In this document: one piece after another, positions 24,859 through 51,175 of the stretch
How positions within the stretch are numbered: the stretch's first letter is position 1
How the letters are laid out: every line of letters begins with the position of its first letter
From: Dehalococcoidia bacterium
GTDB lineage: Bacteria; Chloroflexota; Dehalococcoidia; Bin125
NCBI GenBank assembly: GCA_965247775.1
Contig: OZ252031.1
Location: forward strand, 552,125-616,124
Direction of reading: 5' to 3'
Length of the DNA: 64,000 bases
Program-made: the position numbers and the translations under genes
The notes under the pieces: model-generated
The model's input: only the letters and a program-made list of their open reading frames with translations
What the model was told of the DNA's origin: nothing
The model's database searches: none

Positions 24859-24931
24859 GCCGCCATCTCCAGTGCGCGCGCGTGCGTCCAGTATGGCGGT
24901 GAGAACGGGTGTTCGCATCGTAGGGAAGGGC

Positions 24932-25130: not shown

Positions 25131-25134
25131 GGGT

Positions 25135-25792
25135 CACGTTGTCGGGGGGATCGGTGACGACCAGGTCCGCGGGCGTGTCGCCCAGGCACCGCGCCAGCGC
25201 CGCCGCGTCCGTGGCGTCGCCGCGGAAGAGGCGATGGGCACCCAATTGCCAGCGCGCCGGGGGCGATCCCGCTGGCCTCGCGGTCGACCGCCGCCAGCGC
25301 CTCGTCCAGGTCGAACCGCTCCGGCCGCTCGCGCCGCTCGCGTTGGTCGAAGCGGGTGAGCAGGTCGGCCAGCGCGTCGTCGGAGAAGCCGCTCAGCGTC
25401 AGGTCGCGGTCCGCCGTCGCGCGCAGGTCGATCAGCAGGCGGGCGAGCAGGTCGGCGTCCCAGTCCCCGCCGATCTGGTTCAGGGCGACGTTGAGCAGGC
25501 GGGCATCCTCCGCGGTCAGGTCGAGCAGGATCACGGGCACCGTCGTGAGGCCGGCGCGGCGGGCGGCGACGAGCCGCTGGTGGCCGGCGATCAGGCGCTG
25601 GTCGGCACACCGCGCCAGCACGGGGTCGACGACCCCGAACGTGGCGATCGAGCGGGTCAGGGCCGCCAGCTCCGCCTCCTCGATGCGGCGCGGGTTGCCC
25701 GGATCGGGGTGCAGATCTTCGATCGGCACCTGTTCCACGGTGACGGGGGAGGTGGATGCCGCCCCGTCGGGTGTCGTCTGTACACTAGACAT
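25135..25792 (-). pseudogene. ParB-domain / DNA methyltransferase fusion, frameshifted and truncated just after the DPPxN motif
   Basis: The N-terminus has VEQVPIEDLHPDPGNPRRI...IAGHQRLVAARRAGLTTVPVILLD. LGAHRLFRGDATDAAALARCLGDTPADLVVTDPPDNV follows in another frame (ORF 24610..25245). The sequence then switches to the IS1595 fragment. Confidence 0.6.
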
Positions 25793-25819
25793 TGCACATC
25801 ATCCTCAAAAAAAGAGCCT

Positions 25820-26407
25820 TCAGGCGCTGGCCGGAAGCCGCGGGTTGGGGACGGCACGGCGCAGCAAGCCGAGCTTCTCCAATCGAATGCGCATCGCGAT
25901 CGGCGAGACGTCGAAGCGTCTCGCCAACGGCCGGCAGAACCGTTCCAGGTCCTGCTCGTCCCTCGCCAGACGGTCGGCCTCGCCGCAAGACGCGGTCCCG
26001 CGTGCGACGTCGACGCAGGGATGATCGACGGGGGTGGGCGGCTGGAGGACCCGGCGTTGCTGGTCGGGAAAGCGGTCGTTCCAGGCCGCCACGATCATCG
26101 GGCGCGGTATCAGCAGGCAGGAGGCGTAATGGTTCGCCTGCCACTCCCCTCGCCGCGTGGTCTGGGTCGGCCAGCAGATGGCCTCGGCCGCAGGCGCCGC
26201 GCCGAGGAACACGGTCTGCGGCGCGTCCCGCAGGATCCGGGGCGGATGCAGCCGCCAGTGTCCACCCTCGTGCGCCAGCGTGAAGCGGTAGCGATTCTCT
26301 TGGGAGGGATGCTCCTCGGGATCCAGGCTCTCGTCGACAAAGATACTGCCGCCCCCGTAGATCGCGCCCAGGATGGCCGTCTCGCCGCTCGCCGGCCGCG
26401 GCACGGT
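25820..26407 (-). pseudogene. ImmA/IrrE-family metallopeptidase, N-terminus cut off by an IS insertion
   Basis: RFTLAHEGGHWRLH (HExxH) plus ANHYASCLLIP and FDVSPIAMRIRLEKLGLL. The first 36 codons of ORF 25820..26515 are the antisense of the IS left end. Confidence 0.6.
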
Positions 26408-27639
26408 TGACCTGCCCCCCCAGAGCCGGACCAGATCCTGTGAGAGGATTCGGGGCGGTGCGAAGGGAGTCGGCATGGCACGCAAGCGGTACGCGGCCGA
26501 GGAGATCATCGGCAAGCTGCGGGAAGCGGAGGTGGCGCTCGCGCAGGTCGCCCGCCGCCGCGGTGTGGCCGAACCGCCGTACTCCCGCTGGCGGCGCGAG
26601 TACGGCGGGCTGCGGGTCGATCAGGCCAAACGCCTGAAGGCGCTGGAGCGCGAGAACAGCCGGTTGAAGCGCCTGGTGGCCGATCAGGCGCTGGACAATG
26701 CGATGTTGCGGGACGTCGCGGCGGGAAACTTCTGCGCCCGGCCAAGCGGCGCCGGGCGACGTCCTACCTCACGGACCAGTACGCGGTGTCGGAGCGGCGA
26801 GCTTGCCAGGTCACCGGGCAGGCGCGGGCCACGCAGCGCGACGTGCCCCGGCCGTCCCCGGATGCGCCGGCGCTGATCGTGCGCATCGTCGCCCTCGCCA
26901 CGCGCTTCGGCCGCTACGGCTCCCGTCGCATCACGGCCCTGCTGCGCGCGGAGGGCTGGCGCGTGAACCACAAGCGGGTGGAGCGCCTGTGGCGCCAGGA
27001 GGGCCTGCGGGTGCCGGCGAAACAGCCGAAGCGCGGCCGCCTCTGGTTGGCCGACGGCTCGCTGGTCCGGCGGCGGGCCGAGCGCCCCCACCACGTCGGG
27101 TCCTACGACTTCGTCTTCGACCGCACCGCCGATGGGCGCCCGGTGCGGATCCTCGCCATCGTGGATGAGTACACGCGCGAGTGCCTGAGTCTCGACGTGG
27201 CCCGCCGGCTGCGTAGCGACGATGTCCTGGCGCGGCGGGCTCAGCTCTTCGTCGAGCGTGGGCCGCCGGCGTACCTGCGGTCCGACAACGGCCCGGAGTT
27301 CACGGCCACGGCGGTGCGCGACTGGCTGACGCGGGTCGGCGTGACCACCCTCTTCATCGAGCCCGGCAGTCCCTGGGAGAACGGCTCTGTGGAATCTTGC
27401 AACGGCACGCTGCGCGACGAGTGCCTCAACCGCGAACGCTTCGACACCCTGCTGGAGGCCCAGGTCCTCATCGAAGGCTGGCGGCGGGAGTACAACCAAA
27501 TCCGGCCCCACAGTGCGCTCGGCTACCGTCCACCCGCCCCGGAAACGCAGGAGATCCGATCTCCCCTCCCCACCCTCCGGGCAGCCCGGAGCGTCCCAGC
27601 CCTAACTTAACCACTGGTACAACGATCGGGGGCAGGTCA
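26408..27639 (+). mobile_element. IS3-family insertion sequence, copy A (1232 bp)
   Basis: Left end TGACCTGCCCCCCCAGAGCCGG at 26408, right end ...GGTACAACGATCGGGGGCAGGTCA at 27639. It has orfA/orfB organisation. Confidence 0.85.
26475..27610 (+). CDS. IS3-family transposase OrfAB (needs a -1 frameshift at GGGAAAC 26723..26729); the OrfA HTH region looks damaged
   Basis: OrfA reads MARKRYAAEEIIGKLREAEVALAQ...RWRREYGGLRVDQAKRLKALERENSRLKRLVADQALDN. OrfB has the DDE/rve motifs SYDFVFDRT, SDNGPEFTA, PGSPWENG and YNQIRPHSALGY. Confidence 0.75.
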
Positions 27640-27643: not shown

Positions 27644-28892
27644 TGACCTGCCCCCTCAGAACTGGTCCAGATCCTGTGAGAGGATCCGGGCCGGACGAGG
27701 GGAGCCGGCATGGCACGCAAGCGGGACCCGGCGGAGGAGATCATCGGCCCCCTGAGGGAGGCGGAGGTGGCCCTGGCGCAGGGGCAGCCGGTGGGGGCGG
27801 TGGTGCGGACGCTCGGGATCAGCGAGCCGACGGATGACCGCGGGCGCCGGGAGTACGGCGGGCTGCGGGTGGATCAGGCCAAACGGCTGCAGGGGCTCGC
27901 GCGGGAGAACAGCCGGCGCAAGCGGCTGGTGGCCGACCAGGCGTTGGACAACGCGATGGTGCGGGACGTCGCAGCGGGAAACTTCTGCGCCCGGCCACGC
28001 GGCACCGGGCGACGTCCTCCCGCACCAACCCGTCCCCCGTGTCGGAGCGACGGGCCTGCCAGGTCACCGCCCAGGCGCGGGCACCGCCGCGCTCCGTGCG
28101 CCAGCCGTCGACGGATGCGCCGGCGCGGATCGCGCGCATCGTCGCCCTCGCCACGCGCTGCGGGCGCGACGGCGACCGCCGCATCACCGCCGTACTGCGC
28201 CAAGAAGGCGGGCGCGTCAATCACACGCGGGTGGAACGACGCTGGCGCCCAGCGGGGCGACGGGTGCCGGCGAAACACCCCACGCGGGGCCGTCTCTGGC
28301 GGGCGGACGGCGCGCGGATGCGGCGACGGGCGGAGCGCCCCCACCATGTCTGGTCCGACGCCGTCGTCTGCGACCGGACCGCAGACGGGCGGCCCCTCCG
28401 GTTGCTGGCCAGCGTGGACGCGTACACGCGGGAGTGCCGCAGCCGCGACGTCGTCCGGCGGCGGCGCAGCGACGACGTCCTGGCCCGCCGCGCCCCGCGC
28501 TTCGTCGCGCGGGGCCCACCGACCGACCTCCGCTCCGACAACGGCCCAGCGTGCACCGCCACCGCGGTCCGCGACTGGCTGACGCGGGTCGGCGTGACCA
28601 CGCTCGTCATTGAACCGGGCAGCCCCTGGGAGAACGGCGATGGGGAATCCTTCACCGGCACGCTGCGCGACGCGTGTCTCAATCGGGAACGCTTCGACAC
28701 CCTGCTGGAAGCCCAGGTCCTCATCGCGGGCTGGCGGCGGGAGTCCAACCAGATCCGTCCCCACAGCGCCCTCGGTTACCGCCCCCCCGCCCCGGAAACG
28801 CTGGAGATCCAACCTCCCCACCCCGCCGACTGGGCAGACCGGCGGGTCCCGGCACTCACTTAACGACTGGTACAACGATCGGGGGCAGGTCA
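27644..28892 (+). mobile_element. IS3-family insertion sequence, copy B (1249 bp), directly abutting copy A
   Basis: Left end TGACCTGCCCCCTCAGAACTGG at 27644, right end GGTACAACGATCGGGGGCAGGTCA ending at 28892. It is separated from copy A by CACG only. Confidence 0.85.
27710..28863 (+). pseudogene. Degenerate transposase OrfAB of copy B
   Basis: Same architecture, with GGGAAAC at 27976..27982. Conserved residues are replaced: YGRYG to CGRDG, WSYDFV to WSDAVV, PEFTA to PACTA. Confidence 0.6.
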
Positions 28893-29307
28893 GGCCGAGC
28901 CATCGCGCCAGACCTCATGTTCCTGCCAGCTGAGCTGTCCGGTTGGGGCCTGGCTCCGCAGCAGCGAGATCGACGTGCCGGCCGCTCACCCGACTGCGGG
29001 ATAGTGGGTGCCTCCACGGTGTCTGCATCGATGGACGGCACTGGAGGGCGTCGCTGGTGGCTCTAGAGCTGGCAGCCGGGCCCCTCCGCTCTGAGCCGGA
29101 AGAACGACCCCGGGGTTTCGTCACTAGCAAGGGCGGATTGCAGCAGGGGGGATGATCGTCGCTCCCGTGGTCTTGACCGCGGTTAGGGCCTGCGCCGTGG
29201 CGCCGCTCTCGCCGTTAGGATGCGGGACGCGGACCTGCCCGCCGGCGCAGGACATGGGGATCGGGAGATGCCGGCGACAGCGGGATGGCCCGGATCGGAG
29301 GTTCTGC

Positions 29308-30447
29308 GTGGGGGAACGGATTTACGCGAGAAGCCAAGACGGACGCCTCGAACCACTCGAGGAGCAGGCCTTCGCGACGGAGGACGATCTCCAGGCGTTG
29401 ATCGCCGATCACCCCGAGCTGCTCGACGGGAAGCAGATCCAGCCCGACAACCCCCGCCGCTGGATTCTCGTCACCCGTGAGAAGGGGATCGCCGAGTCGC
29501 CCGGAGCGAGCCACCGCTGGGCGGTGGATCACCTGGTCGTCGACCAGGACGCGGTGCCGACCTTGGTCGAGGTGAAGCGCGCCTCGAATCCCGAGATCCG
29601 CCGGACCATCGTCGGCCAGATGCTGGAGTACGCGGCGCACGCGGCAGTGACCTGGACGAAGGACGAGTTGCGCCGGGCCTTCGAGCAATCATCCCGGGAC
29701 CAGGACCGCGACCCCGATCAGGTGCTCGGGGAGCTGCTAGGGCCGGACGAAGACGTGGACACGGATCGGTTCTGGGACGAGGTTGCCCGCAACCTCGCGG
29801 CGAAGCGCCTCCGGCTGCTCTTCGTCGCGGACGGGATTCCGGAACCCCTTGAGCGTGTCGTCGCGTTCCTGAACGCGCAGATGTCCGGGATCGAGGTCCT
29901 CGCGGTGGAGGTGAAGCAGTTCCGGGGCTCGCAGACCCAGACGCTGGTGCCGCGCGTCCTCGGAAGGACGGCGGCATCCCCTGCCGCCGGCTCAGCGCCG
30001 CGATTGACGAGGGAGAAGTTTCTGGGCGACTTCGGCAGCGAAATACAACAGAAGGCGGCGGCGCAGCTGCTGGATGCGGCGAAGGGCGCCGGCGCCACGT
30101 TCGAATGGGGTCCGAGCGGCGTCAGCGTCCGCGTCCCGTGCCCGCTCTGGCCCCAACCGGTCACGGTCGCCTGGATCTATCCTCCCTCGACATCCGAGAA
30201 GGGCTGGATGAAGACCCGGGCGTTCACCTTTGGGGCGGCGATCCTCGAGAGTGACCCGGACGAGCGACTGCGGGCCATCCTGCAGCGCTGGGTGGGACAG
30301 TTCGAGGGCGATCCCTTCGCCGATGCGTCGAGCAAGGGGGTGCAGGCGCGGTCGATCGACCATGCGGAGGCCGTCGGCCAAGTCGAGCGACTGACAGCAC
30401 TCCTCGCGGGTGTCATCTCCGATATCCGATCGCTGGAAGCGAGATGA
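29308..30447 (+). CDS. PD-(D/E)xK nuclease-like protein (NucS/DUF91-like core) with a C-terminal extension
   Basis: ORF track 29152..30447. GTG 29308 lies 7 nt after GGAGG. Carries RWAVDHLVVDQDAVPTLVEVKRASNPEIRRTIVGQMLEYAA (a D...EVK nuclease motif) and LLFVADGIPEPLERVVAFLNAQM. Confidence 0.6.
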   Translation: MGERIYARSQDGRLEPLEEQAFATEDDLQALIADHPELLDGKQIQPDNPRRWILVTREKGIAESPGASHRWAVDHLVVDQDAVPTLVEVKRASNPEIRRTIVGQMLEYAAHAAVTWTKDELRRAFEQSSRDQDRDPDQVLGELLGPDEDVDTDRFWDEVARNLAAKRLRLLFVADGIPEPLERVVAFLNAQMSGIEVLAVEVKQFRGSQTQTLVPRVLGRTAASPAAGSAPRLTREKFLGDFGSEIQQKAAAQLLDAAKGAGATFEWGPSGVSVRVPCPLWPQPVTVAWIYPPSTSEKGWMKTRAFTFGAAILESDPDERLRAILQRWVGQFEGDPFADASSKGVQARSIDHAEAVGQVERLTALLAGVISDIRSLEAR

Positions 30448-30561
30448 AGCGTGCGGCGTACCTGGACGATCCCCACGTTCGCAGCTTCCTCGACTGGGCG
30501 GCGCCGCTAGCTGCCGGCAAGCGGCCTCTCTGGCATCGCTGGCGAAGAGGGCTTCGACAGA

Positions 30562-33500
30562 GTGCCCAAGCCTGTGTTCAGGCGTACGCCCACGCGGGCA
30601 GCGGTCGCGCATTATCATCCCTCACGGCGCGCGCGAGACTGCGGCGTCGGCCCTCGCCTGCGTCTCTGCACTCGTGTCTCCGTACAAACTAGGCGTGAAT
30701 CGAGTTGCGACATTCTCGACAATTTCCCTCCCGGAGTCGCTTCTGACATCCGGCACTCGAGGTACGCGAGTTGGAACGCGGCAATCTCCGGGTACTATTT
30801 CGGTGGAAAATGGTCAGGTCGGCCTGTATATCTCGACCTAGAACCTGACGCGCTTCATAAACTCTCGGTAATGGCCGGAGAGGCCGGCGATCCTGAGACG
30901 GCGTTCGCCGACGCGGTGATCGAGACACTCGAGCTTTCCGCAGCTGGGCCGAGCGTCTTCAGACGGCATCGCGAGGCGTGCTCTGCCTGGATGGTGGGGG
31001 GGCGCATTACCCCTCCTCCGTTCCTAGCCATCTTGGCCCTCTTTTCGATAGTCGCAGAACGGATGCGCTCCGACGATCAGTTTCGTGCGAACAACTACTA
31101 TGGGCGGCTCGCCCAGGCCCTGCGGGTCAGAGACACATCCGTCCGCTGTAAGCTCGAGCGTGACTTCCGACACGACAGCAGTCTTCTATGGGATGGCCTT
31201 AACTCATGGCTGCTACTCAAGGAAGGTCGCCTCGGCTTGCCGACCGCTTTCGCGTTCGACTGGCGGTCTCACATCGGAAGGCCGATGTCTCAGGCACTTG
31301 TATCTGACCAAGATCGGCGACGTTTCAAAGAGGCCTTCAGTGATTTCGGACTTGATCCAGGTCCAGTCGCGCTAACGGAGATGGAGGAGCTACTCGATGG
31401 TTGGCTGCCTCTCTCCTCTGCGTCGGCATCGCTAGAGGGGCTCTGGGGAGTTCGAGACGCTCGTGAACGCATCACTGCTGTCGCCTGCTTGGAACTCGAG
31501 GCTTGGGATGGTCTTCGTGAATCGCAATTCTCGCCGACCGCCGACCTACCGATTCGACTCGTGGGCAGTCTGATCCAGATGCCTCCACCGCGGCTTGAAC
31601 TCGGCCTTAGAGTGAGGTCTCTCGAAGGGGCTCCCGTCGGTTCCTACATGTTGGCGACCGATCATCGTGCCCCAAATGAGGCCGGCGTACTCAGGGGCCC
31701 GGAATCGCCGATAGAACTCATCGAGTCGTCCCTGGAGACATGGTACAAATTCGACGATCAAGACCGAGTCTCGATCCCCGACGCTCTAATTCAGCACGTG
31801 CGACTTGAGTCGAGCGACCAACAACGCCCTGCGGTTACAAGAGCACCGAAGCGCTTAATCACACTGCTCTTCGATCCGGAGGCTCGATGGTACCGGGAAG
31901 TCCCGCGAGCGCGGCTCGGTGAGCGGCACCTGCTGATCGGTCACAGCTCCCTCCAGAAAGCGCTGGAGGCGGTCCTCGACAAGGTTGCTCTCCCAGGCTG
32001 GCAACTACACACCGCCGGTGAACTTGCCGGTTGCCCGGTCGACTGGATCGTGGTGTCCGACGTGCGCATCGGAACTGTGGCCGACGACTGCACTTACGAC
32101 GACGACACTCAGCAGCTGTATCCACTCGGAACTGCGAGCGTGTCGCTCGATGGTGGGTTCCGCATGCCCGGTCGATCAACGTTCCACCGCGATCGGCCCC
32201 CGCGAGCAATCGTGACCCTTGTTGGCGGGCAGCGCGGCAGACTGCACCTAGTGCCCGTCCACTCCACTGACGACGCCACTGGAAGGTTCCTTGGAACCCA
32301 CGAGGCAGTCGCTGAGATTGACCTCGGCGAACTGGGAGCGGTGGAGCATGGTAAGTACCGCCTTGCCTTGGTCGCTGAGAGGGTCCGAGATCGAGATGGG
32401 GCGCTTCTCTACAGCGCTCCTGCTCGATTCGTGAGTGCGGCGGCCGCTCAAATCGAGAGTCGGCCGCGCCTCGCGCATGCTCTGGAGTCAGATCCCCTGG
32501 GTGCGCTTGGTGCCTGCGAGTCCTGGGAGGGGGCAGGCGCGACAGTAGCCGGAGCCCGAACCGACTGCTCAATGACTCCCGGATCCACTGAGGGCCCTCT
32601 CCCACCCGCCGAGTTGGGCGCCCTAGCGCAAGTGGAACCGGACGATGTGTGGTTCTCGCAGGTCGCCGTCAGGGCCTCGCGCTCCTCTGGGACGAGCTGT
32701 CTTCTGGGCTCGCACCACTGGATGCTAGAGTCCGTTCCACCCGGGTCTCGACGGCCTGTGCACGGGGAGTGCCGGAATTGCGGAGCGGAGCGGTGGCACG
32801 GCCGACGGCGTCCACGGCACGCCTCTATCCGCAAGGTGGTCCGCAAGCAGGCAGCCCGCTCGCTCCCTCGCCTTGCCACTCGGGCCGAGGAGGCAGACTT
32901 CGCCTTGCTCATCGACGCGTTGACGTGGTTGGGAGGGGGGCCTTGGGATTCCTTCGCGAGACTGGCATCACAGATAGATGACTCTCCTTGGTTCCCGATG
33001 GAGGCTGCAAGGGATCTGTCGGCACTAGGCCATCTGGACATTGAGTTGGACCCGGCGACGCTGAGGCCACGGTCCTGGTCGATCGCGCCCCCAACTCTGG
33101 CGATGACGAGCTCCGGAACGGCAGTCCTCTGTGGCGCGCGGATCCCATCGCTGACCGAGGCCATCTGCGAGGATGCAAGGAGCCTCGGAGCGGAGATCGT
33201 GGACGAGCTGTCAGCACGTGGCTTGCGGACGATTGGGATCAAGGGGCTTCCAGTGGATGATGTCCACCTGCTCGCCTCAGTGGTCTCAACTGATCAGGCC
33301 GATGTTGGTGTCTCGGTCCAGCCCGCCCTCCAGATTCTCGACAACCTCCCGCCGGTGTCTGAGATCGCAAGTGCGTTGCCAGAGACCCAGTTGCCGGCCG
33401 GCGTCGACTTCTGGAGGTGGGCGCCTGAGAGTCGAAAGTGGACCGAGGTTGGGAGAGTAGGAGAGCTGGGCGTCTTCAGGTTTAGGACGTCACCTGCGCG

Positions 33501-33783
33501 CTTTGGCTTCCGTCGTGCGTCGGGCAGCTCTGGCATGCGCACAGTCGACTCCCGACTCGGGAAGCTGCTCGCAGCTGTCGAGGCTGGAGTTTCTCCTGTT
33601 GCGTACGACCCCGGGACCGCGCGTCTGTTCGCAGCGAGAGGGGCGCAGCTTCCTGGACTCTACGAGCGTGCGATCGTCCTCTGCTCGGGGCACTTGCCAA
33701 CGGACGTAGACGGTCTGGCGGTCGCGTATCGCGAGGTCCCCGAGACTGTCGCGCGCCTACTCTGGTCCAAGCTGTCGGCGTAG
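30562..33783 (+). CDS. Large unknown protein (up to 1073 aa), positional partner of the helicase (DruH-like / DrmE-like candidate); start uncertain
   Basis: Uninterrupted ORF ending 13 nt before the helicase start. No motif recognised except a CxxC ([14 protein letters not shown]). The first approx. 40 codons are Arg-rich and look non-coding. Confidence 0.6.
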
Positions 33784-33796
33784 GGAGGACGTTTAC

Positions 33797-36700
33797 GTGG
33801 TGTTGGGCCCATTGCGTGTCTACGAGGCGATCAAGGAGGGCTACCTCAGGTACTTCGAGACGGCATTCTGGGTACGGGATTCAGCAATTCGGGCAGAGCG
33901 GGCGCAACTGCTCCAGGGCGACAGCCGGTACTTCACCGAGCCCTTGATCGAGCCGGTCCTTCCATACGAGCCACGAGACAGCATCGCTGAAGTTGCGGAC
34001 GCTCTCGACCTGCCGCATCAGATCGCTACGGAGCTCGCCCACATTGTCTTCGGCGAGGGGCCAGACTTCCCGCTGTTCGATCACCAGCGAGAGGCGCTCA
34101 CATCATCGATGGGGCCACCGACCGACGGTTCGAACCCTGTTGTCACGGCCGGGACGGGAGCGGGGAAGACGGAGTGTTTCTTACTTCCGATCTTCGCGAG
34201 GCTTCTGCTCGAGAAGCGAGTCGATGACTCAGGATCGGAGACTCGCTGGTGGGGCGCTGGATTCACTGGTTCGTGGCGCGATGTTCGGAGCGAAGCAGCA
34301 CGACCCGCCGCAGTTCGTGCGATGATCCTCTACCCAACAAACGCCCTCGTCGAGGATCAGATGACGAGGCTACGCTCCGCTGTTCGACGCGCGCGCACGA
34401 TGCGAGAGCCCCTTTCGGTCTACTTCGGGCGCTATACGGGCGCTACGGAGGGAGCGCAAGACTCGCCATCTACAGTCGGAGTGCCGCGCGCGAGGGAAGC
34501 CTCGCTGACGCTCAGAAGTCACGAGAGGGACGTTGACCAGCTACACGAGCCGGCCGACGAACTCCTCGACGAACTGCCGGACCCCCGCGAGGGTGAGTTG
34601 CTCACTCGCTGGGACATGATCGAGTCACCGCCCGACATCCTTGTCACAAACTTCTCGATGCTCAACGTGATCATGATGCGAGAGCGCGAGGAGAGCATCT
34701 TCGATAAGACTGCTCAGTGGCTTGCAGAGGATCGTCAGCGCGTCTTCACGCTGGTTGTTGATGAGCTTCATCTCTATCGAGGCACGCAGGGAAGCGAAGT
34801 TGCTCTTGTCATACGGAATCTGCTTAGGCGACTCGGGCTGAGTCCAGACTCACCACAGCTTCGGTGTATTGGGACCTCGGCATCACTCGACGCCACAGCC
34901 TTGGAGTTCCTCGAGCAGTTCTTCGGCGTCCAAAGGTCTCGGTTCAGAGTGATCGCGGGGAGCCCCGTCGAGATCATGCCCTCTGGGTCGATCCCGCTTG
35001 AGGCCGCATTGGAAGCGGTGGACTCTATCGAAGCCCGCACTCGGCTCGCCAGAGAGCTCGACCTTCCAATGGCGCTCGCCAATGCGTCCCTCAACGATGG
35101 CGGGCAAGTCACCCCCCGTCCTGTACCTGAGCTCGCCAAGTCAGCCTTCCCTGATGCGGAAGAGGAGGAGGGCATTCGAGCGCTCGAGGGTGTTCTTGCA
35201 GCGATCGAGGAGTCCCCAGGTGGCGACCTCTCGACGATTCGCTTCAGAGTGCACATGTTCCTTCGGAACGTTAGAGGGCTCTGGGCCTGCTCCAACCCGG
35301 CGTGCGATAAAATCGGGGAGTATGCGTCGGATGAGCGTCGGATCGGCAAGCTCTACGCGCGTCCGGCTGATACGTGCGCGTGCGGCGGTCGCGTGCTCGA
35401 GCTTCTCTACTGCTATCAGTGCGGAGATGTCTCGCTCGGGGGCTATTCCACCCCATCTAGCAATGCCGCGAGCGGAGCCCCTGATCACTGGTACCTGTCA
35501 CCGACACCCGGCGGCGCACAGGACCTCCCCCGCCAGGACTTCGTCTTCAAGCGAGCATGGGGCGAGTTCATGTGGTACCGGCCAGCGCGAACTCGCCCAA
35601 GCCAGAGGAATAGCTGGGAGCACACGCCCCCGGAAGAGAACTCACTGACCTTCCGGTTCGTGGACGCTGTCCTCGACCCCATCACGGGCCTCTTGCGCCC
35701 CGCGCCCATCGGGGGTGCCACGGGGACCATGCTCTCTGCACCTCCGATGTCCGAGGGCTCAGGCAGAGTACCCGCCTTGCCGCAGCGATGCCCGAACTGC
35801 CTCCAAGAGGGCTGGAATCGGGACCCGGAGACCTTCTTCCGGGGAGTGGTCCGAAGCGAGATCCGAGCTCACACGATGGGCGTAGCTGTGACGGGGCAAG
35901 TAATCGCTGACCGTCTCATCGCGTCCCTAGACCTCCCTCGGGACGAGCCCCAGACGATCGTCTTCACCGACAGTCGGAACGATGCTGCAACAACGTCCGG
36001 TGGCTTGGAACTGAACCACTTCCGCGACCTCGTCCGCCAGCTCCTAGTCGGCGCGGTGGGCGAATCCGAGTCTCCCGCGAAGCTTCTAGCACGTGCAGCG
36101 GCAGGCGACAGTCAGGACGACGACCGGACCGCGAGCCTGAAGCAGAGCTTCCCAAATGAGTGGGGTGCATACCTACTCCGCGCTCGCGGTGCGGCAACCG
36201 ATGCAGACCTTGCTCGGCTCCAGGAGTTCGAGCAAGGGTCCGCAGGTTCGGGAGCTGCCGCCTGGGGAGCGTTACTCCTCGGACTTGAACGCCGGCTGGT
36301 GTCATTGGGTGTAAATCCCTTCGGCCCAGGTCCATCGGTTCGGGCATGGGGCAATGAGGACTGGTGGAGGATCTACGAGGCCCCCGCGGGTGAGTGGATC
36401 ACACTCGACCCGGAGCTCGTGCAGCTTGCTGGCGGTGAGAAGCTCCGACGGATTGCCCGACACCTTGGCGACGCCGTATTTGACCGCGCGGGCCGTGACG
36501 CTGAGTCCATCGGCCTTGGCGTTGTGCGACCGCGCGTGGCCAAGAACGATCTCGCCATAGAGCGAGGCGAGTGGCTGTCGCTGTGCTCGAGCGCCGTGCG
36601 GATCCTCGGGCTATCCAGGAGGTACGGGGGACTCCGCGAGGGAAGGCCTAACTGCCCACGGGTCCTCGCAGGCTATCTTGAGCGAGTGGGCTCCCGGCTC

Positions 36701-39169
36701 GGGATCGATCCCAGCCAACTTGAGCAAGAGGTGAAGCGTGCGCTCGTGGATGCTGGCGCAGTGGACGACTGGTGGCTCCTGCAACTCACCCAGGTAAACG
36801 CCGGGCTCGCCTTCGAGCTGTCGGAGGAAGGGCAGGATGCGTACCGATGTCGCCGGTGCGCGCGCGTCCACCACGACAACCCCCTCGGTGTTTGCACCAC
36901 CGAGGCTTGCGCTTCGTCAGAGTTCGAGACATTCGCCCTGGACAGGACAAGCGACTACTACTCGTGGCTGGCCCTCCAGCCAGCACGCCGGCTTCGCGTC
37001 GAAGAGCTGACCGGCCAAACCGATAGAGAGGAGCAGAGGCTTCGGCAACGCCGATTCAAGCGACTGCTGCTCGAGGACGAGATCGAGCTAACGCAAGGGC
37101 TTGATGTGCTGAGCGTGACGACAACGATGGAAGTCGGGATAGACATCGGCGCGCTCTCATCGGTTCTGATGGCGAACATGCCGCCCGAGAGATTCAACTA
37201 CCAGCAGCGGGTCGGCCGCGCCGGACGTACAGGACAGCCATTCTCATACGCCGTGACCCTCTGCCGGGAGCGGACGCACGATGATTTCCACTTCCAACGA
37301 CTTCACCGGATGACCGCCGCGCCTCCACCCCAGCCGTACCTGGAAGTTAGCCGGCTGCCCCTGGTCAAACGCGTGGTGGCGGCCGAAGCACTACGCCGAG
37401 CTTTTCGGTCCATGCCGCCGGGATCACGGCCAAGACCGGGTCGAGACAGCATCCACGGCACGTTCGGAGCGACAGCCGACTGGGCCACGCTCTATAGGAC
37501 AGACGTTGAGCACTGGCTCGCGGCATCCGAGGAGCACGCCGATCTCGCTGCTGGCCTAGCGGCCTACACGGGGCTCGAGCACGACGGCCAGGCGGAGATC
37601 GTGAGTTGGCTTCGAAGTGGGCTGGTCGATGACGTCGACGAGGCCGTCCAGAGCGATGCATTCCGAAGTCGGGAGCTGAGTCAGCAGCTGGCCTCAGCCG
37701 CGGTCCTTCCGATGTTCGGATTCCCATCTACGATTCGCCCCCTGTACTACAGGGCCCCGGAGAGTCTCCGCGATGACGAGCAGGCGCAGGTGGCAGACCG
37801 ACCTTTGGACCTCGCAGTCTCGCTCTTCGCTCCAGGATCGGAGATTGTGAAAGACAAGCGCTTGCACGTGAGCGGCGGCTTCGCGGCCTGGGACTTCCGG
37901 GGTAACCAGGCCGTACCCGTGGCAGAGCCGCTCGGCGCTCCGATGCGCATCAGACGATGCACCAACTGTGGCTCGATAGAGCCCTCTACTGATGAAGACA
38001 GCCCGTGTCAGGTCTGCGACACGTTGTGCGACTCGGTGAATCTGTTCCAGCCGATCGGGTTTGCGACGACCTCGTTGCTTGGAGGGCAACCGGCGCGCGA
38101 CTTCGACGATCAGCCCGACATGGGACCACTGCTGTCGCCTCCTCAGCTCGCCTTCGGTTCCGACGCGGAGTCCGAGTCCCAGTTTGGGGTAGGTCGAGTG
38201 GAGAGCCTGCGCGGAGCCGATGTGTACTCGATCAACGACAACGACAAGAAGCAGTTCGAGTTCTACGCGAACGGGTCGAGGGTTGTGGTTCCCGATCGCT
38301 CCCTCTACCGAGAGGACCAGGCCCCCCCATTCGGGGCGACGGACCCCTCAGCGGTAGGCTCGATTGGCTCCGTCCGACGAACAGACGTCATGAGGATCTC
38401 ATTCGATGGCATCCCTACGCTAGGTCCGCCGAATCAAGTGATTGGCGTACATGACCGCATGCCGGGCGGAAAAGCAGCGCTGTGGTCATTTGCCGAGGCC
38501 GTTCGAATCGCAGCAGCCGCTGTTCTGGGGGTCGACCCGACCGAGCTTCAAGCCGGAGTTCAACCGTATCGAGTTCATGAGGAGGTGACCGGACGTGTGT
38601 TCCTCGCGGATACCCTCGAGAACGGTGCCGGCTACTCGACCCACCTGGCGACCGAAGAGGGGGCTGCGCAAGTCCTCGAACTCCTTGTCGACGATCTTGG
38701 TCAGCGCTTCCGAGACCCCGCACACGCGAGTGAGTGCGACTCGTCGTGTCAAGATTGCCTGAGAGGATGGGAGAACCGTCAACTTCACCCACGGCTGCAC
38801 TGGAGACTTGCACTCGACGTGGCCGAGGCGGTCAGCGGTCACGCCCTCAGCTTTGAGAAGTGGCGACCACTGGTTTCGAAGCGGGTTGACGCCTTCCTGA
38901 GGGGCTTCGCTGAACCACTCCCTGAGCTCGAGGCAGTCGACGCCGAGGGCCTGCCGGCAATAGTGGATCGGAAGACCGGTCGCGCAGCGATCATCGGACA
39001 CCCTCTTTGGCGGTCCGACCAGAAATTCTGGAGTGCGCCTCAGGCAGTGGCGCTCGACTTCCTCAAGCACGAGCAGAAGGTCAGGGACGTCGAAGCGCTC
39101 GACGCACTTGAGCTACTGATGCGGCCATCCGACCTATACGCGCGATTCGCAGACGCGAGGGGTGAGTGA
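33797..39169 (+). CDS. 1790-aa superfamily-2 helicase fused to a DUF1998-type zinc domain (DruE-like, or fused DrmA-DrmB-like)
   Basis: GTG 33797 after GGGAGGA. Motif [11 protein letters not shown], Ia [31 protein letters not shown]. Cys clusters CSNPACD...CACGG...CYQCG. Motifs [14 protein letters not shown]...[10 protein letters not shown]-terminal LENGAGYS...CDSSCQDCL...HPRLHW is typical of DUF1998. Confidence 0.8.
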
Positions 39170-40281
39170 CAGTCGCCCCCCAACCGCGGCCAGATGTCTC
39201 CCGCACTCAGATGCTCTCCCCCTCGACTGCCGAGATGCTCATGAGTTGCCCTTCGAGATTCGCGTTCTCGGCGGATCCGCGCTTTCAGCCCCTCGATAGA
39301 GGGGGCCTCCCGGCGGCCTTGGGCAACGTGATCCACACTGTTGCCGAGCGTGTCGATGAGCATGAGGCGCGTGACAGTGGCGACAACGCGGACTCGTTCC
39401 TGAGCGAACTGTGGGACGACGCCGTGGCCGGCGAGGTCGGCAAGCTTGAGGCCGAAGCAAGGCTAACTCCGGTGCCGGAACCTCGCCTGTGGCCCAACTA
39501 TGAGGTTGCACGAGCTCGTTTCCTCGGCCGCCTCAGGCGCCAGTCGCGGCGCGGACCGACCGCATCGGGATTAGTGCGGGCTCCTACCAGACGAGAGGTC
39601 TGGATTTCCGCCCCTGACATGCGCTTTAAGGGTCGCATCGATCGAGTTGAGTCCGGACAGGATGGTTCCGTGACCATCGTCGACCTCAAGAGTAGCCAGG
39701 AGTATGGCGATGAGATCACAGAGCGGCATAGACGCCAACTGCTCGTGTACGCGGCGCTCTGGCACTCACAGACCGGCGAATGGCCTCGGCGAGCGGCGAT
39801 CGAACTCAGCTCGGGTGAGCGACGCTGGATGGAGATCCATCCCGCGGAGGCGCAGGAGACAGTTGAGGGCTTCCTCACACTCCTAGACGAGTTCAACGAG
39901 CGTGTCGAGCACGGGGAGGACATGACCGAGCGCGCGGTACCCAGTCCCGACAACTGCGTGCACTGCCCATTCCGCGTGGCATGCAAGCCGTTCTTCGATG
40001 CGTTGTCGCCCAAGTGGGACTGGTGGCTCGTCAGTGGTCTAGGCGAGATTCTGACTGTCACACACCAGAATCTGACGTCCATCACACTCGCCATCGACGC
40101 GACGAATCTCGAGCGTCGCGAGGATTCAACTCTGGTCCGCTTCACCGGACTGCCTCAGTCGATGGACCTAGAGCCAGGAACGCGCTTCGCCTTCGCCGAT
40201 GCCGATCGTGCGCGGACCCGCAGCGACGACCTGCGCGTTATCTTCCCAACCTCTGCTCTCAGTTGGGCCGAGTCCACGTGA
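39166..40281 (+). CDS. Cas4/RecB-like PD-(D/E)xK nuclease with Fe-S cysteines and an extra C-terminal domain
   Basis: GTG 39166 overlaps the helicase TGA (GTGA). N-terminal Cys in [16 protein letters not shown]...IVDLKSS...QLLVYAA, and the C-terminal [10 protein letters not shown]. Confidence 0.7.
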
Positions 40282-40284
40282 CGG

Positions 40285-41280
40285 TCACAGGCTTGCCGAC
40301 GCTCTATGGTGCTCGAGTGCCTCACGACTCGGCCGTAGGGCAGGCGCGGCAGGCAGTGTTAGCTTGGCCCTCGTAAGCGAGGCATAGTTCGTCCCTTTCA
40401 GCCGAGCCGCCACCATGACTGCTCCGGTTGCGGAGTCGAACGCGATGAGGCCGAGATCGAAGAGCGTGTGCAAGTCGGCCCGGAGCAGGATGCCGTTACC
40501 GGGATGATCGGTCGACGGTCCGCGATAGGGAACAATGTGACACGCTTCTAGCACTTCCTGTACATCGCAGCCGGTGACGGCACACCGGCCGTCGTACGCT
40601 TCGAGGAGCTTCTGCCGGAACTCTGGTTGACCGCGTCGCCGAACAATGGAGGCAGCTACCCGCTCACGGGCATCGGGCAGACTTTCTGGGGAAAAGAAAC
40701 CCGAGTCGACAGCGTCGTCTTGCTGAGCGGCAAGCAACTCCGTCATCTGCGCCGGTGTAGGGACGCCCTCTGCCGATGGGATTCCCTCAAGCAAGAAGAA
40801 GCCCTCCTCCCATCCTGCGATAACCGCTAGACCCTCCACCTTGTATCGGGGATCTGGCGAGGGAGAAGTTTGTCGCAAGACTCCTACGGGGACCTCGTCC
40901 TCGTGACACCGCAGCAAGCCACGATTCGTATAAGCCTGACCCCGCTGCTGAGGGTCGGGTCCCTCTTGGAAGTAGCGCATGGACCAGGTCCCACGGGGGC
41001 CTGGTTGCCGCTCTCCATCGGGGTAGGGACTATCAAGGGTTGTCCGTACGCTGAGGGCGTACTCAGTCCACGCTGGCTTGTAGATCCCCTTGGCCCTCGT
41101 AGCTAGGAACGTCCCGTCGGGTAGCGGATCAGGCCACGAGACCTCAGTGCCAGCGCTTTGAGCGAACCAGAGGAGGGCTTGACGATGGTGGTCCGGAAGT
41201 CGGTTGAGGAGGTCGTCAATAGCCACTTGGCGCAGCACATCCGACGGCCATTGTGGAGGCCTTTCCATACTCACAGTCAC
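40285..41280 (-). CDS. HNH endonuclease with an N-terminal SRA/YDG-like domain (candidate modification-reading nuclease)
   Basis: C-terminus YDGRCAVTGCDVQEVLEACHIVPY...NGILLRADLHTLFDLGLI (HNH). N-terminus AKGIYKP...WSMRYFQE...TNRGLL...VPVGVLRQ...RYKVEGLAVIAGWEEGFFLLEG resembles SRA-fold readers. The stop is 3 nt from the Cas4-like stop. Confidence 0.65.
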   Translation of the reverse strand: MTVSMERPPQWPSDVLRQVAIDDLLNRLPDHHRQALLWFAQSAGTEVSWPDPLPDGTFLATRAKGIYKPAWTEYALSVRTTLDSPYPDGERQPGPRGTWSMRYFQEGPDPQQRGQAYTNRGLLRCHEDEVPVGVLRQTSPSPDPRYKVEGLAVIAGWEEGFFLLEGIPSAEGVPTPAQMTELLAAQQDDAVDSGFFSPESLPDARERVAASIVRRRGQPEFRQKLLEAYDGRCAVTGCDVQEVLEACHIVPYRGPSTDHPGNGILLRADLHTLFDLGLIAFDSATGAVMVAARLKGTNYASLTRAKLTLPAAPALRPSREALEHHRASASL

Positions 41281-41935
41281 TCACGAGCGGACACTCGGAG
41301 CAATGAGCCGTACGCGGGTGGCAGAAACGGGCAGCGATGTCGATCAGTCCAAGATTGAACTCCTTTGCTGAGCCCTCGGGCAGGAGCTCCTCCGCGGACT
41401 GCATGAGCGTCCGACTCGCGTAGGACGGTCCACTGATGTCCTGGCCGAGGACTCTTCTCAAGACCCTGCCGCTTCCCTCATCGATCATCGGCACAGCCTG
41501 GCCGTATGCCAGGCACAGGACGGCCCGCGCGCTGTATCGGCCGAGCCCCGGCAACGCCTCCAACTCCCGCAGACCTTGTGGCACCTGGCCTCCGTGCTCC
41601 TGCACCAGAATTCGTGCGCACTCCACAAGCCTGTCCGCCCGGTTCACCAGACCAAGAGTGCGGAAGTGTCGACGCACGCTAGCGACGTTCGCCTGAGCAA
41701 GCGACTCGGGGTCAGGATACTTCGCGATCAAGTCCAGATACGGAGTAACTACCCGAGGAGCTTGGGTCTGGCGGAGCAGCACCTCCGCAACGAGAAGATG
41801 GTATGGGTTCCGGATCTCCCGCCAGGGGAAAACTCGCCCATTCTCACGGTACCACCCGACCGCGGAGTCTGCCAGTTCCCGGCGAGCTTGTAGATCCCGT
41901 GCTCCTTCAGATTCTTCGACAGGCTCTCGTTCCAT
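41216..41935 (-). CDS. HhH-GPD DNA glycosylase (endonuclease III / MutY / Mig-like) with a 4Fe-4S loop
   Basis: LLVAEVLLRQTQA, LPGLGRYSARAVL (HhH) and the C-terminal CHPRTAHCSECPLVSDC. ATG 41935 lies 2 nt after the dcm TGA; the alternative TTG 41941 overlaps it. Confidence 0.75.
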   Translation of the reverse strand: MEREPVEESEGARDLQARRELADSAVGWYRENGRVFPWREIRNPYHLLVAEVLLRQTQAPRVVTPYLDLIAKYPDPESLAQANVASVRRHFRTLGLVNRADRLVECARILVQEHGGQVPQGLRELEALPGLGRYSARAVLCLAYGQAVPMIDEGSGRVLRRVLGQDISGPSYASRTLMQSAEELLPEGSAKEFNLGLIDIAARFCHPRTAHCSECPLVSDCEYGKASTMAVGCAAPSGY

Positions 41936-41937
41936 CC

Positions 41938-43296
41938 TCAACGGCCCCCGGAGGCGGTTGATGGACCGAGGTCACGGTGATCCAAGAGTCGTCTCGCGAC
42001 CTCATAGGCTACGTCAACGTGCACAGCGTTCCCCAGAGCTTTGAAGGTAGCAACTCTGGACGTCGGGACATTGAACTCATCAGGAAAACCCTGCAGGCGT
42101 AGCCCTTCCACACGGGACAAGTGGCGCCGCTCGGGTCCTAGGATGGGAATCTGCGTGCTAGTCATCGCCACCAGAGACGGGCTGCTCGCATATCGCTTGA
42201 CACGCAGGCCAGACGGCCTGAACTGGAGGATGTGTCTCCACAGGTCCCTCTCTTCTCCCTGGCAGTTCCACTCGAGCTTTCGGAGGGAGGGGGGAAAGGC
42301 CTGAAGGCCGCTAACCCAACCTAGGGGAAGTTCGTCTCGAATCGTCGAAAGCCAGGCGCGGTTTGCTCTGATGAACTGCACCTTCCACCGGGGGAACTCC
42401 GTGACTTTGGTTTTCGCATAGCTGGGCAGGAGATTGAATTCCCGCCTGAGGCCAGACGTCCCGTGGCTGGGGGGGTCAGAGCCATTCTCCCGAGCTCGCA
42501 CCTTAGCCCATGGTGTCACGCCTTCGTAGGAGTAGGTCGCGTTGAACTCATCGCCCCATATCGGAAACGACGGCAGCGATATCTGGTCCTCCGAAAGTGC
42601 CCCCAGAAAGGCGGTCCAGTGCTCTATGCAGTGCCAGTGCTGGTCCCCGATGAGTGTCTCCTCGCGATCTCGCGTAGACAGCTCAGTCCGCGCTTGGACA
42701 ACGTCATCCATCGAAGTCACGGCCCTCCTATTCCTCGGCGGGAAGGGACTGGCCAAGAGGCCCTCAAGTGAAGCTACGGCGAAGAAGCGCTCCCGGTGAT
42801 GCGGGAACCCGAGGTGATGTGGTGAGATAAGGCCCTCACCTCCACTCGTGACATGCTCGGTTCCTCGGACCTCGTAGCCGAGCTCTTCCAGGCTGCTCTT
42901 CACGATCGACCATGTGCGTCCCTGGTCGTGGCGTTCAAAGTTCCCGACATTCTCCAAGATCACGAAGCTGGGCCTGTGCCTCTCGACGATCTCTCGAATC
43001 TCGTGAAACAGTGTCCCGGTCGTCTGGTCCCTCATGCCAGCCTGAGCGCCAGACTTGGAGAAGGGTTGGCACGGGAAGCCGGCACAAAGCACGTCGTGCT
43101 GAGGAACGTCGTCCTTTGCGAGCCTGATATCGCCGTGGACGGGCGGCCCATCGAGAAAGTTCTTGCCATAGACCTCTTGGAGTTGGCCATCGATTTCGCA
43201 CGCAAAGACGCACTCGTGCCCAAGACGCTCGAGTGCGAGGCGGAAGCCACCCAGGCCAGCGAAGAGGTCGATGAACCTCATCGGTGGGACGCCCAT
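41938..43296 (-). CDS. dcm: DNA (cytosine-5)-methyltransferase
   Basis: Motif I FIDLFAGLGGF, motif IV GFPCQPFS, motif VI ENV, and C-terminal QGFPDEF...GNAV. Confidence 0.85.
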   Translation of the reverse strand: MGVPPMRFIDLFAGLGGFRLALERLGHECVFACEIDGQLQEVYGKNFLDGPPVHGDIRLAKDDVPQHDVLCAGFPCQPFSKSGAQAGMRDQTTGTLFHEIREIVERHRPSFVILENVGNFERHDQGRTWSIVKSSLEELGYEVRGTEHVTSGGEGLISPHHLGFPHHRERFFAVASLEGLLASPFPPRNRRAVTSMDDVVQARTELSTRDREETLIGDQHWHCIEHWTAFLGALSEDQISLPSFPIWGDEFNATYSYEGVTPWAKVRARENGSDPPSHGTSGLRREFNLLPSYAKTKVTEFPRWKVQFIRANRAWLSTIRDELPLGWVSGLQAFPPSLRKLEWNCQGEERDLWRHILQFRPSGLRVKRYASSPSLVAMTSTQIPILGPERRHLSRVEGLRLQGFPDEFNVPTSRVATFKALGNAVHVDVAYEVARRLLDHRDLGPSTASGGR

Positions 43297-43486
43297 GAGG
43301 GGTGTATGGTGAGCGGGCTACGCACTTCGGTGCATCCCTCCCCTCGTGTCTCCCCTAACCGATCACTGCTGACCTTAACGGCCTGCGTCTCGATACGCAC
43401 CGGGCCAGAGGCGTGCATGACGAATAAGGGGAGTCGGCCTACGCATCGCCCTATTGGTGAGATGACTCCCGGAGGCCGACGGTCGA

Positions 43487-43963
43487 CTACTGTGCGCCGG
43501 CCAAGTCGAGTGGCCTCCCTGTCTCACGCAGGAGCGTGACGGTACGGCGACGGTGGGGGATCCACGGTCGACCACTAGCCTGCCCTCCGCATCGCCTGGA
43601 TTTGCCGTCAGCCATTCGACCATCTGGCGCTGGGCCCCGAATCTCTTCGACGGGCCGGACGTGCTCCCGGAGGGTGTGGACCCGCCGATAGCCGAAGGCA
43701 TCGGCGACCACCTTTTCGTCCCATCCCCGGTCGCACAGTGAGAGCGCGAAGGGGGCGTTGAGCCGGCGGCGGTCGACACCGCCCAGCCCGGCGACACCGA
43801 GATAGCCCGCTACCACGAGGCGCAGGTGACTCGCGGTCGTGAGTTTCTCCGAGCGATTCGTCTGGAGGAAGATCGTCCCCCGCGGGGGCTCGGCGCTGGC
43901 CTGCCAGTACGCCTCGGAAGCGGTCTTCGAGCCAGTGCAAGCGATCGCTCGCGCTCTCGACAT
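43487..43963 (-). pseudogene. Possible HTH-domain remnant (IS630-like transposase N-terminus or sigma region-4-like)
   Basis: Part of ORF 43487..44329 with high third-position G+C. RRRLNAPFALSLCDRGWDEKVVADAFGYRRVHTLREHVRPVEEIRG resembles a winged-HTH. No catalytic domain follows. Confidence 0.3.
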
Positions 43964-51108: not shown

Positions 51109-51175
51109 GCCCGTCCTCACCCTACGTCTCGCGGTTCGCGAGGGCGTGAGTGTAATCGAATGGCCTAGACCCCTG

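Follow-up and report, generated by a model that had tools for sequence, protein, structure and literature searches.

A 64,000-nucleotide stretch of the genome of a Dehalococcoidia bacterium (contig OZ252031.1, positions 552,125 to 616,124), referred to here as the window, carries a locus that very probably encodes a Druantia anti-phage system of the type II/IV clade. The locus comprises a DruF-DruL fusion protein (DruF/L), the large helicase DruE and an accessory Cas4-like Fe-S nuclease, DruK, and these genes converge on an operon for a DruM-like C5-cytosine DNA methyltransferase (Dcm), a DNA glycosylase and an HNH endonuclease. In the same joint reading, and with the same high probability, the six genes move as one 12.8-kb block that lies inside an island of ~31 kb at a tRNA-Lys gene. 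The original prediction, made from the letters of the window, had described the helicase, its partner and the nuclease as a hybrid of type III Druantia and class 2 DISARM. Its recognition of a Druantia-class system with a Cas4-like nuclease and a link to a methylase stands, and its subtype and its claim to novelty do not.

With this locus, Druantia types II and IV gain an example of the actinobacterial type. These two are understood less well than any other branch of a widespread defence family, in which the mechanism of type III was solved in 2026. It defines no new class of system and opens no long-standing question, and the DruK-bearing combination is already covered, in that all four parts are modelled in a public defence database.

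The three-gene unit and the DruE helicase

The unit consists of three plus-strand open reading frames (ORFs), at 30562-33783 (1073 amino acids, aa), 33797-39169 (1790 aa) and 39166-40281 (371 aa). The first and second are separated by a 13-nucleotide (nt) spacer (33784-33796, GGAGGACGTTTAC) with a Shine-Dalgarno sequence inside it (GGAGG), and the stop codon of the helicase gene overlaps the start codon of the nuclease gene in the GTGA at 39166-39169, an arrangement by which DruK is predicted to be translationally coupled to DruE. The tight packing of the three genes and the nearby dcm gene, both noticed at the outset, are confirmed in the window. Profiles from PADLOC-DB were run against seven ORFs at E<0.01 and then against ten more at E<0.001, and besides the three-gene unit the PADLOC and Pfam scans span ORFs from 19.5-30.4 kb and 40.3-51.5 kb. 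The scores of these hidden Markov models, which reach 1442 bits, lie far above chance expectation.

The signature gene of Druantia is druE, which encodes a superfamily 2 (SF2) helicase of ~1800-2000 aa with a DUF1998/MZB module, and it is present in the window at 33797-39169 on the plus strand. Its 1790-aa product is a YprA-family DExH helicase with zinc ribbons and MZB/DUF1998, recognised through PADLOC, Pfam, matches to proteins in the PDB and its motifs. The DruE2 profile scores 1441.7 bits over residues 5-1786 and DruE4 1393 bits, both matching end to end, whereas DruE1 (572 bits), DruE3 (369 bits) and DrmA (34 bits, for the helicase-C motif only) are weaker. Pfam places DEAD, Helicase_C and MZB/DUF1998 (the MrfA zinc-binding domain) in the protein, all above their gathering scores, and detects no PLD domain. 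In the translation, motif I reads AGTGAGKT, motif II DELH and motif III TSAS; CxxC pairs are found at 498/503, 539/542, 665/668, 1018/1021, 1388/1391 and 1404/1407, and further cysteines occur near the C-terminus at 1647/1651/1654. The sequence matches in the PDB are 9wae_A (4.5e-140), 9tu7_Y (5.4e-45) and MrfA/YprA 6znp (4.7e-6). The earlier description of a DruE-like SF2 helicase with cysteine clusters and DUF1998 is thus borne out.

The distant relationship of DruE to the repair helicase MrfA/YprA, together with the resemblance of DruK to the nuclease domains of AdnAB and AddB, would suit a housekeeping helicase-nuclease of MrfA/YprA-like or AdnAB-like kind that serves DNA repair and not immunity. 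The match of DruE to the profiles of the defence clades is, however, ~50 times stronger than that to YprA. The module also sits on a horizontally acquired island of lower G+C content (GC) and has a patchy phyletic distribution, and related loci adjoin restriction-modification (R-M) genes, conjugative-transposon genes and integrases. A repair role accordingly carries hardly any probability. Support for the anti-phage role is indirect and comes from the location on the island, the patchy distribution and the defence genes in the neighbourhood.

The DruF-DruL partner

The gene upstream of druE (30562-33783, plus strand) encodes a 1073-aa protein identified by the PADLOC models DruF2 and DruL4. 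DruF2 (PDLC00023) matches residues 66-1071 at 1.3e-147, over positions 7-1009 of a profile of 1011; DruF4 matches the N-terminal third at 5.6e-41, and DruL4 matches residues 817-1071 at 5.6e-19. The protein is regarded as a DruF-DruL fusion because homologues of ~940-1000 aa elsewhere hold a complete DruF4 followed by a complete DruL4 within one polypeptide. The search for the long form of DruF returned 74 homologues, all ~1000 aa long, every one named hypothetical and every one with DruF and DruL fused. There is no match to DruH or DrmE at E<0.01 among the PADLOC models, and a sequence profile search of Pfam, NCBIfam and the PDB gave no relative, with Pfam searches of four sub-fragments of DruF, DruE and DruK also blank.

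The AlphaFold2 model of DruF/L is good, with a mean predicted local distance difference test score (pLDDT) of 79.8 and a predicted template modelling score (pTM) of 0.73. It consists of a helical domain (residues 59-314), a beta-rich region (329-665) that forms a beta-sandwich and an ordered alpha/beta domain at the C-terminus (780-1073), and the last of these corresponds to DruL. A near-invariant zinc knuckle, C-x4-H...C-x2-C, is made up of C713, H718, C737 and C740. Foldseek searches with the model against PDB and BFVD returned matches to Ig-like sandwiches only. The idea that DruF is an inactivated McrB/CnuB homologue, as has been put forward for a type II component by Bell et al., was considered and is unsupported, as the DruF model contains no McrB/CnuB-like AAA+ fold.

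Residues 1-60 of DruF/L are not conserved and are predicted to be disordered, conservation setting in at about residue 66 (nt 30757). The only in-frame starts ahead of the conserved domain are the GTG codons at 30562 and 30574. Codon 66, where the profile match begins, is also where the DNA shared with close relatives has its left edge. Taken together, the position of this edge and the restriction to GTG starts upstream mark the first ~60 residues as junction sequence.

The DruK nuclease

DruK, encoded by 39166-40281 on the plus strand, is a 371-aa PD-(D/E)xK nuclease of the Cas4/AddB/AdnAB type with a four-cysteine Fe-S signature, for which PADLOC, Pfam and Foldseek agree. The DruK model PDLC00060 matches it over the full length at 3.5e-50, in comparison with only about 1e-10 for the PADLOC Cas4 models, and PADLOC-DB v2 (2023) holds three DruK models altogether. 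Pfam PDDEXK_1 matches at 4e-26. The cysteines follow the Cas4/AddB pattern of one N-terminal and three C-terminal residues, C28...C264-x2-C267-x5-C273, and the catalytic core D159/D173-x-K175/Q191-x3-Y195 is intact. The proposal of a Cas4/RecB-like Fe-S nuclease coupled to the helicase therefore survives.

In an alignment of nine DruK sequences with only 20-37% identity E144, G156, D159, D173, K175, Q191, Y195, C264, C267 and C273 are invariant, and C28 is kept in every sequence that includes the N-terminus. Such invariance of catalytic residues and cysteines between distant sequences suggests that DruK is under selection as an active Fe-S nuclease. The AlphaFold2 model of DruK is poor (pLDDT 58.8) and was built from six sequences only; with it, Foldseek gave a probability of 1.00 to AdnAB (its nuclease domain), ACE1 (an Argonaute-associated Cas4-family protein), Dna2 and Cas4, and also found AddB and Exo5. 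Sequence searches place DruK with the same enzymes, the NCBIfam cas4 and addB matches being under their cutoffs. The AdnAB nuclease, ACE1, Dna2, Cas4, AddB and Exo5 act on single-stranded DNA that is delivered by a helicase. DruK falls outside CRISPR-associated Cas4 proper, with 38 bits on TIGR00372 against a cutoff of 65. No Cas1, Cas2 or other adaptation protein was found among the scanned ORFs by the module, where no dedicated search for CRISPR arrays was run.

Assignment to the type II/IV clade

Four clades of DruE, corresponding to types I-IV, are recognised (10.64898/2026.05.13.724313). The locus is assigned to type II/IV, and neither to type III nor to DISARM class 2, on the basis of the DruF/DruL and DruE2/DruE4 profile scores. 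The original prediction had likened the large partner and the helicase both to the DruH+DruE layout of type III and to DrmE-DrmA-DrmB of DISARM class 2, and had seen in the whole a possibly undescribed hybrid subtype with a Cas4-like nuclease in the place of DrmC. There is a superficial likeness of layout, with a large partner, a helicase-DUF1998 giant and a nearby 5-methylcytosine (5mC) methylase. Further, no relevant paper in the open-access literature joins Druantia with a Cas4-like component, and no discussion of DruK was found there.

The profiles, however, dispose of both likenesses. The partner is DruF plus DruL (1e-147) with no DruH or DrmE match, DruE3 (369 bits) and DrmA (34 bits) compare with 1442 bits for DruE2, and helicase and DUF1998 are fused in a single protein. 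The Ig-like sandwiches that make up the PDB matches of the partner count in the same direction, although DruH structures are perhaps not in that library. Type III is characterised by DruH and a DruE3-clade helicase with a PLD nuclease, a pairing that the window does not hold. As for DISARM class 2, no matches to DrmB, DrmE or DrmC are listed in the PADLOC scans and no PLD gene is found among the scanned island ORFs, and the locus falls outside that class. The claim that the combination is undescribed fails as well, given the DruK models in PADLOC-DB, the 367 proteins of the DruK family and a four-part operon that is common in Bacteroidota (four of four sampled contexts, discussed below). A new hybrid subtype is thus exceedingly improbable.

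Occurrence in other genomes

The genome scan covered one genome per species and was anchored on a DruF pattern taken from an 11-sequence subset of a 43-sequence DruF alignment that, as a whole, diverged too much to yield a pattern. It yielded 18 loci, in Solirubrobacterales, other Actinomycetes, Dehalococcoidia, Oscillatoriales and Bacteroidota, and hence in the phyla Actinomycetota, Chloroflexota, Cyanobacteria and Bacteroidota. DruE lies directly downstream of DruF in all 18, from which DruF/L is inferred to be an obligatory sensor or regulator. DruK follows DruE directly in four of the 18 (L008, L017, L020 and L022), and this frequency is compatible with the nuclease occupying an exchangeable, accessory position.

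A direct search for DruK gave only six relatives, each of which, where the contig was read, sits right after DruE; in total this holds for all nine DruK homologues with contigs read, and at least seven DruK loci have the 4-nt overlap. A separate scan of genome contigs with a DruK peptide pattern matched 29 stretches, none of which was confirmed. With a profile of nine diverse DruK sequences, 367 family members were then retrieved, mostly Bacteroidota proteins of 356-358 aa, the annotations of which are mostly 'PD-(D/E)XK nuclease family' or 'Cas4 (RecB family)'. The four contexts sampled from these (Pedobacter, Niabella, a metagenome-assembled genome of Prevotellaceae and a marine contig) all contain the same co-directional DruF/L-DruE-DruK-Dcm operon, with proteins of ~935, ~2015, ~357 and ~372 aa, respectively, and overlaps of mostly 4-8 nt. 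The Pedobacter Dcm matches DruM2 at 7e-146 and the Pedobacter DruE scores 1928 bits on DruE2.

In two cyanobacterial DruF/L-DruE loci without DruK, L019 (6831-9677) and L021 (6723-9684), a conserved, nuclease-like PLD-HhH_3 protein and a histidine kinase are encoded just upstream. The PLD-HhH_3 protein is not claimed as an alternative nuclease, since the histidine kinase separates it from DruF and the arrangement may be ordinary synteny.

The convergent methylase operon

The dcm gene (41938-43296, minus strand) encodes a 452-aa C5-cytosine DNA methyltransferase (Pfam DNA_methylase 5.5e-62) with the motifs FxGxG, PCQ and ENV. Its ORF begins 1657 nt past the DruK stop on the opposite strand, in agreement with the 1.7 kb given earlier, and the earlier inclusion of a 5mC methylase in the neighbourhood stands. 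Of 58 methylase models, the best match is to DruM2 (PDLC00034, 1.4e-84), ahead of generic type II methyltransferases, with 282 bits on DruM2 against 170 bits on DrmMII in PADLOC.

Beside it, 41216-41941 on the minus strand encodes a 241-aa glycosylase of the MutY/Nth-like HhH-GPD kind (Pfam HhH-GPD), with an Fe-S loop C207-x6-C214-x2-C217-x5-C223. This protein matches the REBASE-derived PADLOC model PDLC03398, 'Type II nicking endonuclease', at 7e-42, and NCBIfam mutY at 6e-48, the latter under its cutoff and over the catalytic domain only. It is likely to be a T:G mismatch repair enzyme that accompanies the 5mC methylase and so a functional analogue of Vsr; in related loci the Dcm has a Vsr or HhH-GPD gene beside it. 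The last gene of the operon (40285-41280, minus strand) encodes a 331-aa HNH endonuclease, with matches to Pfam HNH_2 (1.6e-16) and to the PADLOC HNH/type II restriction endonuclease models. Only the HNH domain (residues ~210-325) is recognisable; the 200-aa N-terminal domain matches nothing, so that the enzyme may be either a conventional or a modification-dependent nuclease. The HNH domain resembles that of phosphorothioate- and modification-dependent restriction enzymes, through a match to NCBIfam NF045808 (7e-12) that is under cutoff and confined to the HNH part. The three genes overlap each other as one minus-strand operon. The stops of DruK and HNH lie 3 nt apart inside a perfect 11-bp palindrome (40278-40288, GTGACGGTCAC), and the two operons have no space for a terminator between them.

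The convergent arrangement brings in a second explanation, that the window holds two independent neighbours: a methylation-blind, type IV-like DruF/L-DruE-DruK system and a type II R-M system of Dcm, glycosylase and HNH, both carried as defence-island cargo with no functional dependence. In its favour, the three minus-strand genes form an overlapping operon of their own and each has generic R-M matches. Type IV is defined without DruM in PADLOC, and at seven of the 18 DruF-DruE loci no Dcm is found within 10 kb. The Dcm proteins of related loci, moreover, are accompanied by genes of the Vsr, MTaX1, AspBHI-N or SacI-N type, as is typical of R-M modules.

The distribution of Dcm, however, argues for a closer tie. 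Of the 18 loci, 11 have a Dcm-like gene no more than 10 kb away, far above the background of roughly one per genome, and the gene is part of the operon in L010, L020, L022 and L025-L028; in Bacteroidota and in L010 it overlaps the stop of DruK or DruE within one operon. Both the window Dcm and the Bacteroidota Dcm score best on DruM2 models, and close relatives of the window locus keep Dcm in spite of the deletion of HNH and glycosylase. Independence of the two operons is on balance unlikely, and the type II/IV reading that includes a DruM-like Dcm is retained.

The genomic island

The extent of the moving unit is indicated by DNA identity. According to blastn against the window, the close relatives L003, L004, L023 and L024 share 80-90% identity over a block of 12.8 kb, from 30756 to 43554, that contains the genes for DruF/L, DruE, DruK, HNH, glycosylase and Dcm; it is because the identity runs between these two positions that the six genes are taken as the unit. 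The relatives L003 (9355-14507) and L004 have a deletion equivalent to window positions 39950-41481, by which the C-terminus of DruK, HNH and part of the glycosylase are lost, and an IS21 element (istA/istB) is inserted in this lineage. HNH is kept in L024, another relative is without most of the glycosylase, and Dcm is retained in all.

The block lies between a tRNA-Lys(UUU) gene found by ARAGORN (20759-20834, plus strand), the left attachment site of the island, and a direct repeat of the 3' half of the tRNA gene plus ~35 nt of flank (51730-51810, plus strand), which serves as the right attachment site and is identical to 20790-20870 at 76 of 81 positions. The 25-nt exact core of the repeat (51750-51774) was absent from 100 shuffles. 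Together, the tRNA gene and the 81-nt repeat bracket ~31 kb that hold the entire defence region; across the module, GC goes down from 0.71 to 0.62. Beside the tRNA gene a tyrosine integrase is split into two overlapping frames, 20973-21770, with the N-terminal SAM-like domain and the first part of the catalytic domain, and 21544-21954, with the remainder of the latter. The gene has the look of a frameshifted pseudogene, so that the island has probably been immobilised.

These signs of damage raise the question of whether the locus might be a decaying or silent remnant on an immobilised island, with no working defence. The integrase in two frames, the IS3 copies upstream and the first 60 DruF codons, non-conserved and with only GTG starts, would fit such a remnant, as would the close relatives in which an IS21 insertion is combined with a deletion across the DruK C-terminus, HNH and part of the glycosylase. 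In the window itself, however, all six genes are full length with intact catalytic motifs, the Shine-Dalgarno sequence and the GTGA coupling are preserved, and DruK is as long as the intact proteins related to it (P0001-P0003). The remnant explanation is therefore given a small probability.

The remainder of the island is cargo of various kinds. Two IS3-family (rve/rve_3) transposase ORFs, at 26786-27610 and 28039-28863, both of 274 aa and 1.2 kb apart, lie upstream of the module and may explain the rearranged junction at the start of DruF. The region 23855-26515 encodes a ParB_N protein that matches the type II methyltransferase model PDLC03229 (1.7e-39) and a capP-like IrrE/M78 peptidase, both of them typical of the cargo of mobile elements or defence islands. 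The ORF at 49930-51453, where the island ends on the right, encodes a 507-aa DUF4011 protein that matches only the N-terminal ~270 of 1550 positions of the PADLOC candidate model PDC-S37 (4e-47), as well as the Hhe model, and is probably a truncated helicase-type defence gene. Between 43487 and 47807 there are four or five ORFs of 228-539 aa with no Pfam or PADLOC match and with low to intermediate G+C content at third codon positions (GC3), which may be uncharacterised island cargo or non-coding.

The construct earlier suggested for expression, 29.3-43.4 kb, had taken in sequence upstream of DruF. The 431-aa ORF found there (29152-30447) is excluded from the module, with a GC3 of 0.84 against ~0.70 in the module, no counterpart upstream of DruF in L003 and a weak match to PDC-S11 (4e-12). 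An 82-aa ORF is coupled to it through ATGA, the two together spanning 29152-30692, and the first ~33 residues of the small ORF are protein-like before it becomes Arg-rich. This region may represent a gene truncated by the arrival of the Druantia block.

A possible mechanism

Several observations weigh against a complete type II/IV Druantia system with the six components named. Canonical type II needs DruG, for which there was no match at E<0.01 in the seven ORFs or at E<0.001 in the ten further ones. The DruE of types I and II is reported to have an inactivated Vsr-like C-terminal domain and no active fused nuclease (Bell et al. 2025, PMC12458937); Pfam finds nothing in residues 1652-1790 of the window DruE, and this dead domain is thus without support here. 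DruK is missing in 14 of the 18 DruF-anchored loci and is for that reason an accessory rather than a universal effector. Dcm belongs to a self-contained M-V-R operon, read from the opposite strand, that could be an independent R-M system, and it has no counterpart near the seven loci mentioned above. The N-terminus of DruF (residues 1-60) is non-native, with a rearranged upstream junction and uncertain expression. Finally, no published experiment on type II/IV Druantia, DruF, DruL or DruK was found in the literature, so that every step of the following mechanism is an inference.

In outline, DruE would, like its type III relatives, load at junctions of single-stranded DNA (ssDNA) and duplex in invader DNA that is replicating or damaged. 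It would then translocate in the 3'-to-5' direction, unwinding the unmethylated invader DNA, and DruK, synthesised in amounts coupled to those of DruE, would digest the single strand so released in the way that Fe-S RecB-type domains do in AdnAB/AddAB. DruF/L may sense the substrate or license the reaction, a role that would be analogous to that of DruH without homology. Dcm would mark host DNA as self, and the glycosylase would repair the T:G mismatches that arise from deamination of 5mC, limiting the mutagenic cost of the methylation.

A tentative extension, for which the chances appear somewhat short of even, is that the DruK-bearing loci represent a distinct branch of type II/IV, in which the dead C-terminal nuclease of DruE has been replaced in trans by a coupled Cas4-like effector and a C5-methylase provides self-marking. 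If true, that branch would be a methylation-gated helicase-nuclease restriction machine, unlike the methylation-independent, self-contained nuclease of type III DruE. For work on types II and IV it is useful to note that DruF and DruL are usually one protein and that the Cas4-like nuclease, when present, comes right after DruE. A C5-methylase is also often nearby, often with a T:G repair enzyme, features that jointly suggest a methylation-aware helicase-nuclease mechanism.

Comparison with known systems

Druantia type II is reportedly made up of DruM-DruF-DruG-DruE, an order credited to Doron et al. 2018. Bell et al. (2025, PMC12458937) use the name 'Type IV CoCoNuT' for the same type. The window resembles type II in its best models, which are DruE2 (1442 bits), the long DruF2 (1e-147) and DruM2 (1.4e-84), but differs from it in the lack of DruG among 17 ORFs scanned (19.5-30.4 and 40.3-51.5 kb) and in its methylase, which is convergent in an operon of its own and does not lead the gene order.

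Type IV consists of DruE, DruF and DruL, without DruM and DruG (Payne et al. 2021, PADLOC, PMC8565338). Here the likeness lies in the full-length match to DruE4 (1393 bits), in DruF beside DruE, in the presence of DruL and the absence of DruG, and the phyla overlap with those of type IV, whose type example is Streptomyces. Unlike type IV, the window has DruF and DruL in one polypeptide, DruK after DruE and a DruM-like Dcm nearby.

A similar arrangement is that of the Bacteroidota operon, as in Pedobacter sp. SL55 (CP113059.1:321325-342398) and Niabella drilacis (FMZO01000001.1), which has the same four parts, the same F-E-K order and overlapping stops and starts. The proteins share 20-30% identity with those of the window, and there, in contrast, Dcm is co-directional right after DruK and HNH and HhH-GPD genes are absent; in Niabella an AspBHI-N domain protein and a Vsr are present.

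Type III DruE has been described as a dimeric, autoinhibited 3'-5' helicase-nuclease that loads at ssDNA-duplex junctions and forks, with DruH sensing or processing the substrate (2026 preprints). The window shares with it a DruE-family helicase with DUF1998 and, likely, 3'-5' translocation from ssDNA junctions coupled to a nuclease, without abortive infection. The differences are that the partner is not DruH and that type III DruE has its own active PLD nuclease and no methylase, whereas the window has a separate Cas4-like nuclease and Dcm. For type I Druantia, a link to host methylation has been reported.

With DISARM class 2 the locus shares the YprA helicase superfamily and an associated 5mC methylase, but in the window helicase and DUF1998 are fused, DrmA reaches only 34 bits and Dcm is nearer to DruM2 than to DrmMII. 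As regards AdnAB, AddAB and Cas4, DruK has in common with them a RecB-type PD-(D/E)xK core, a four-cysteine Fe-S staple and coupling to a helicase. Unlike these enzymes, DruK, a stand-alone protein, carries an additional ~90 aa domain at its C-terminus, and it pairs with an SF2 YprA-type motor instead of one from superfamily 1 (SF1).

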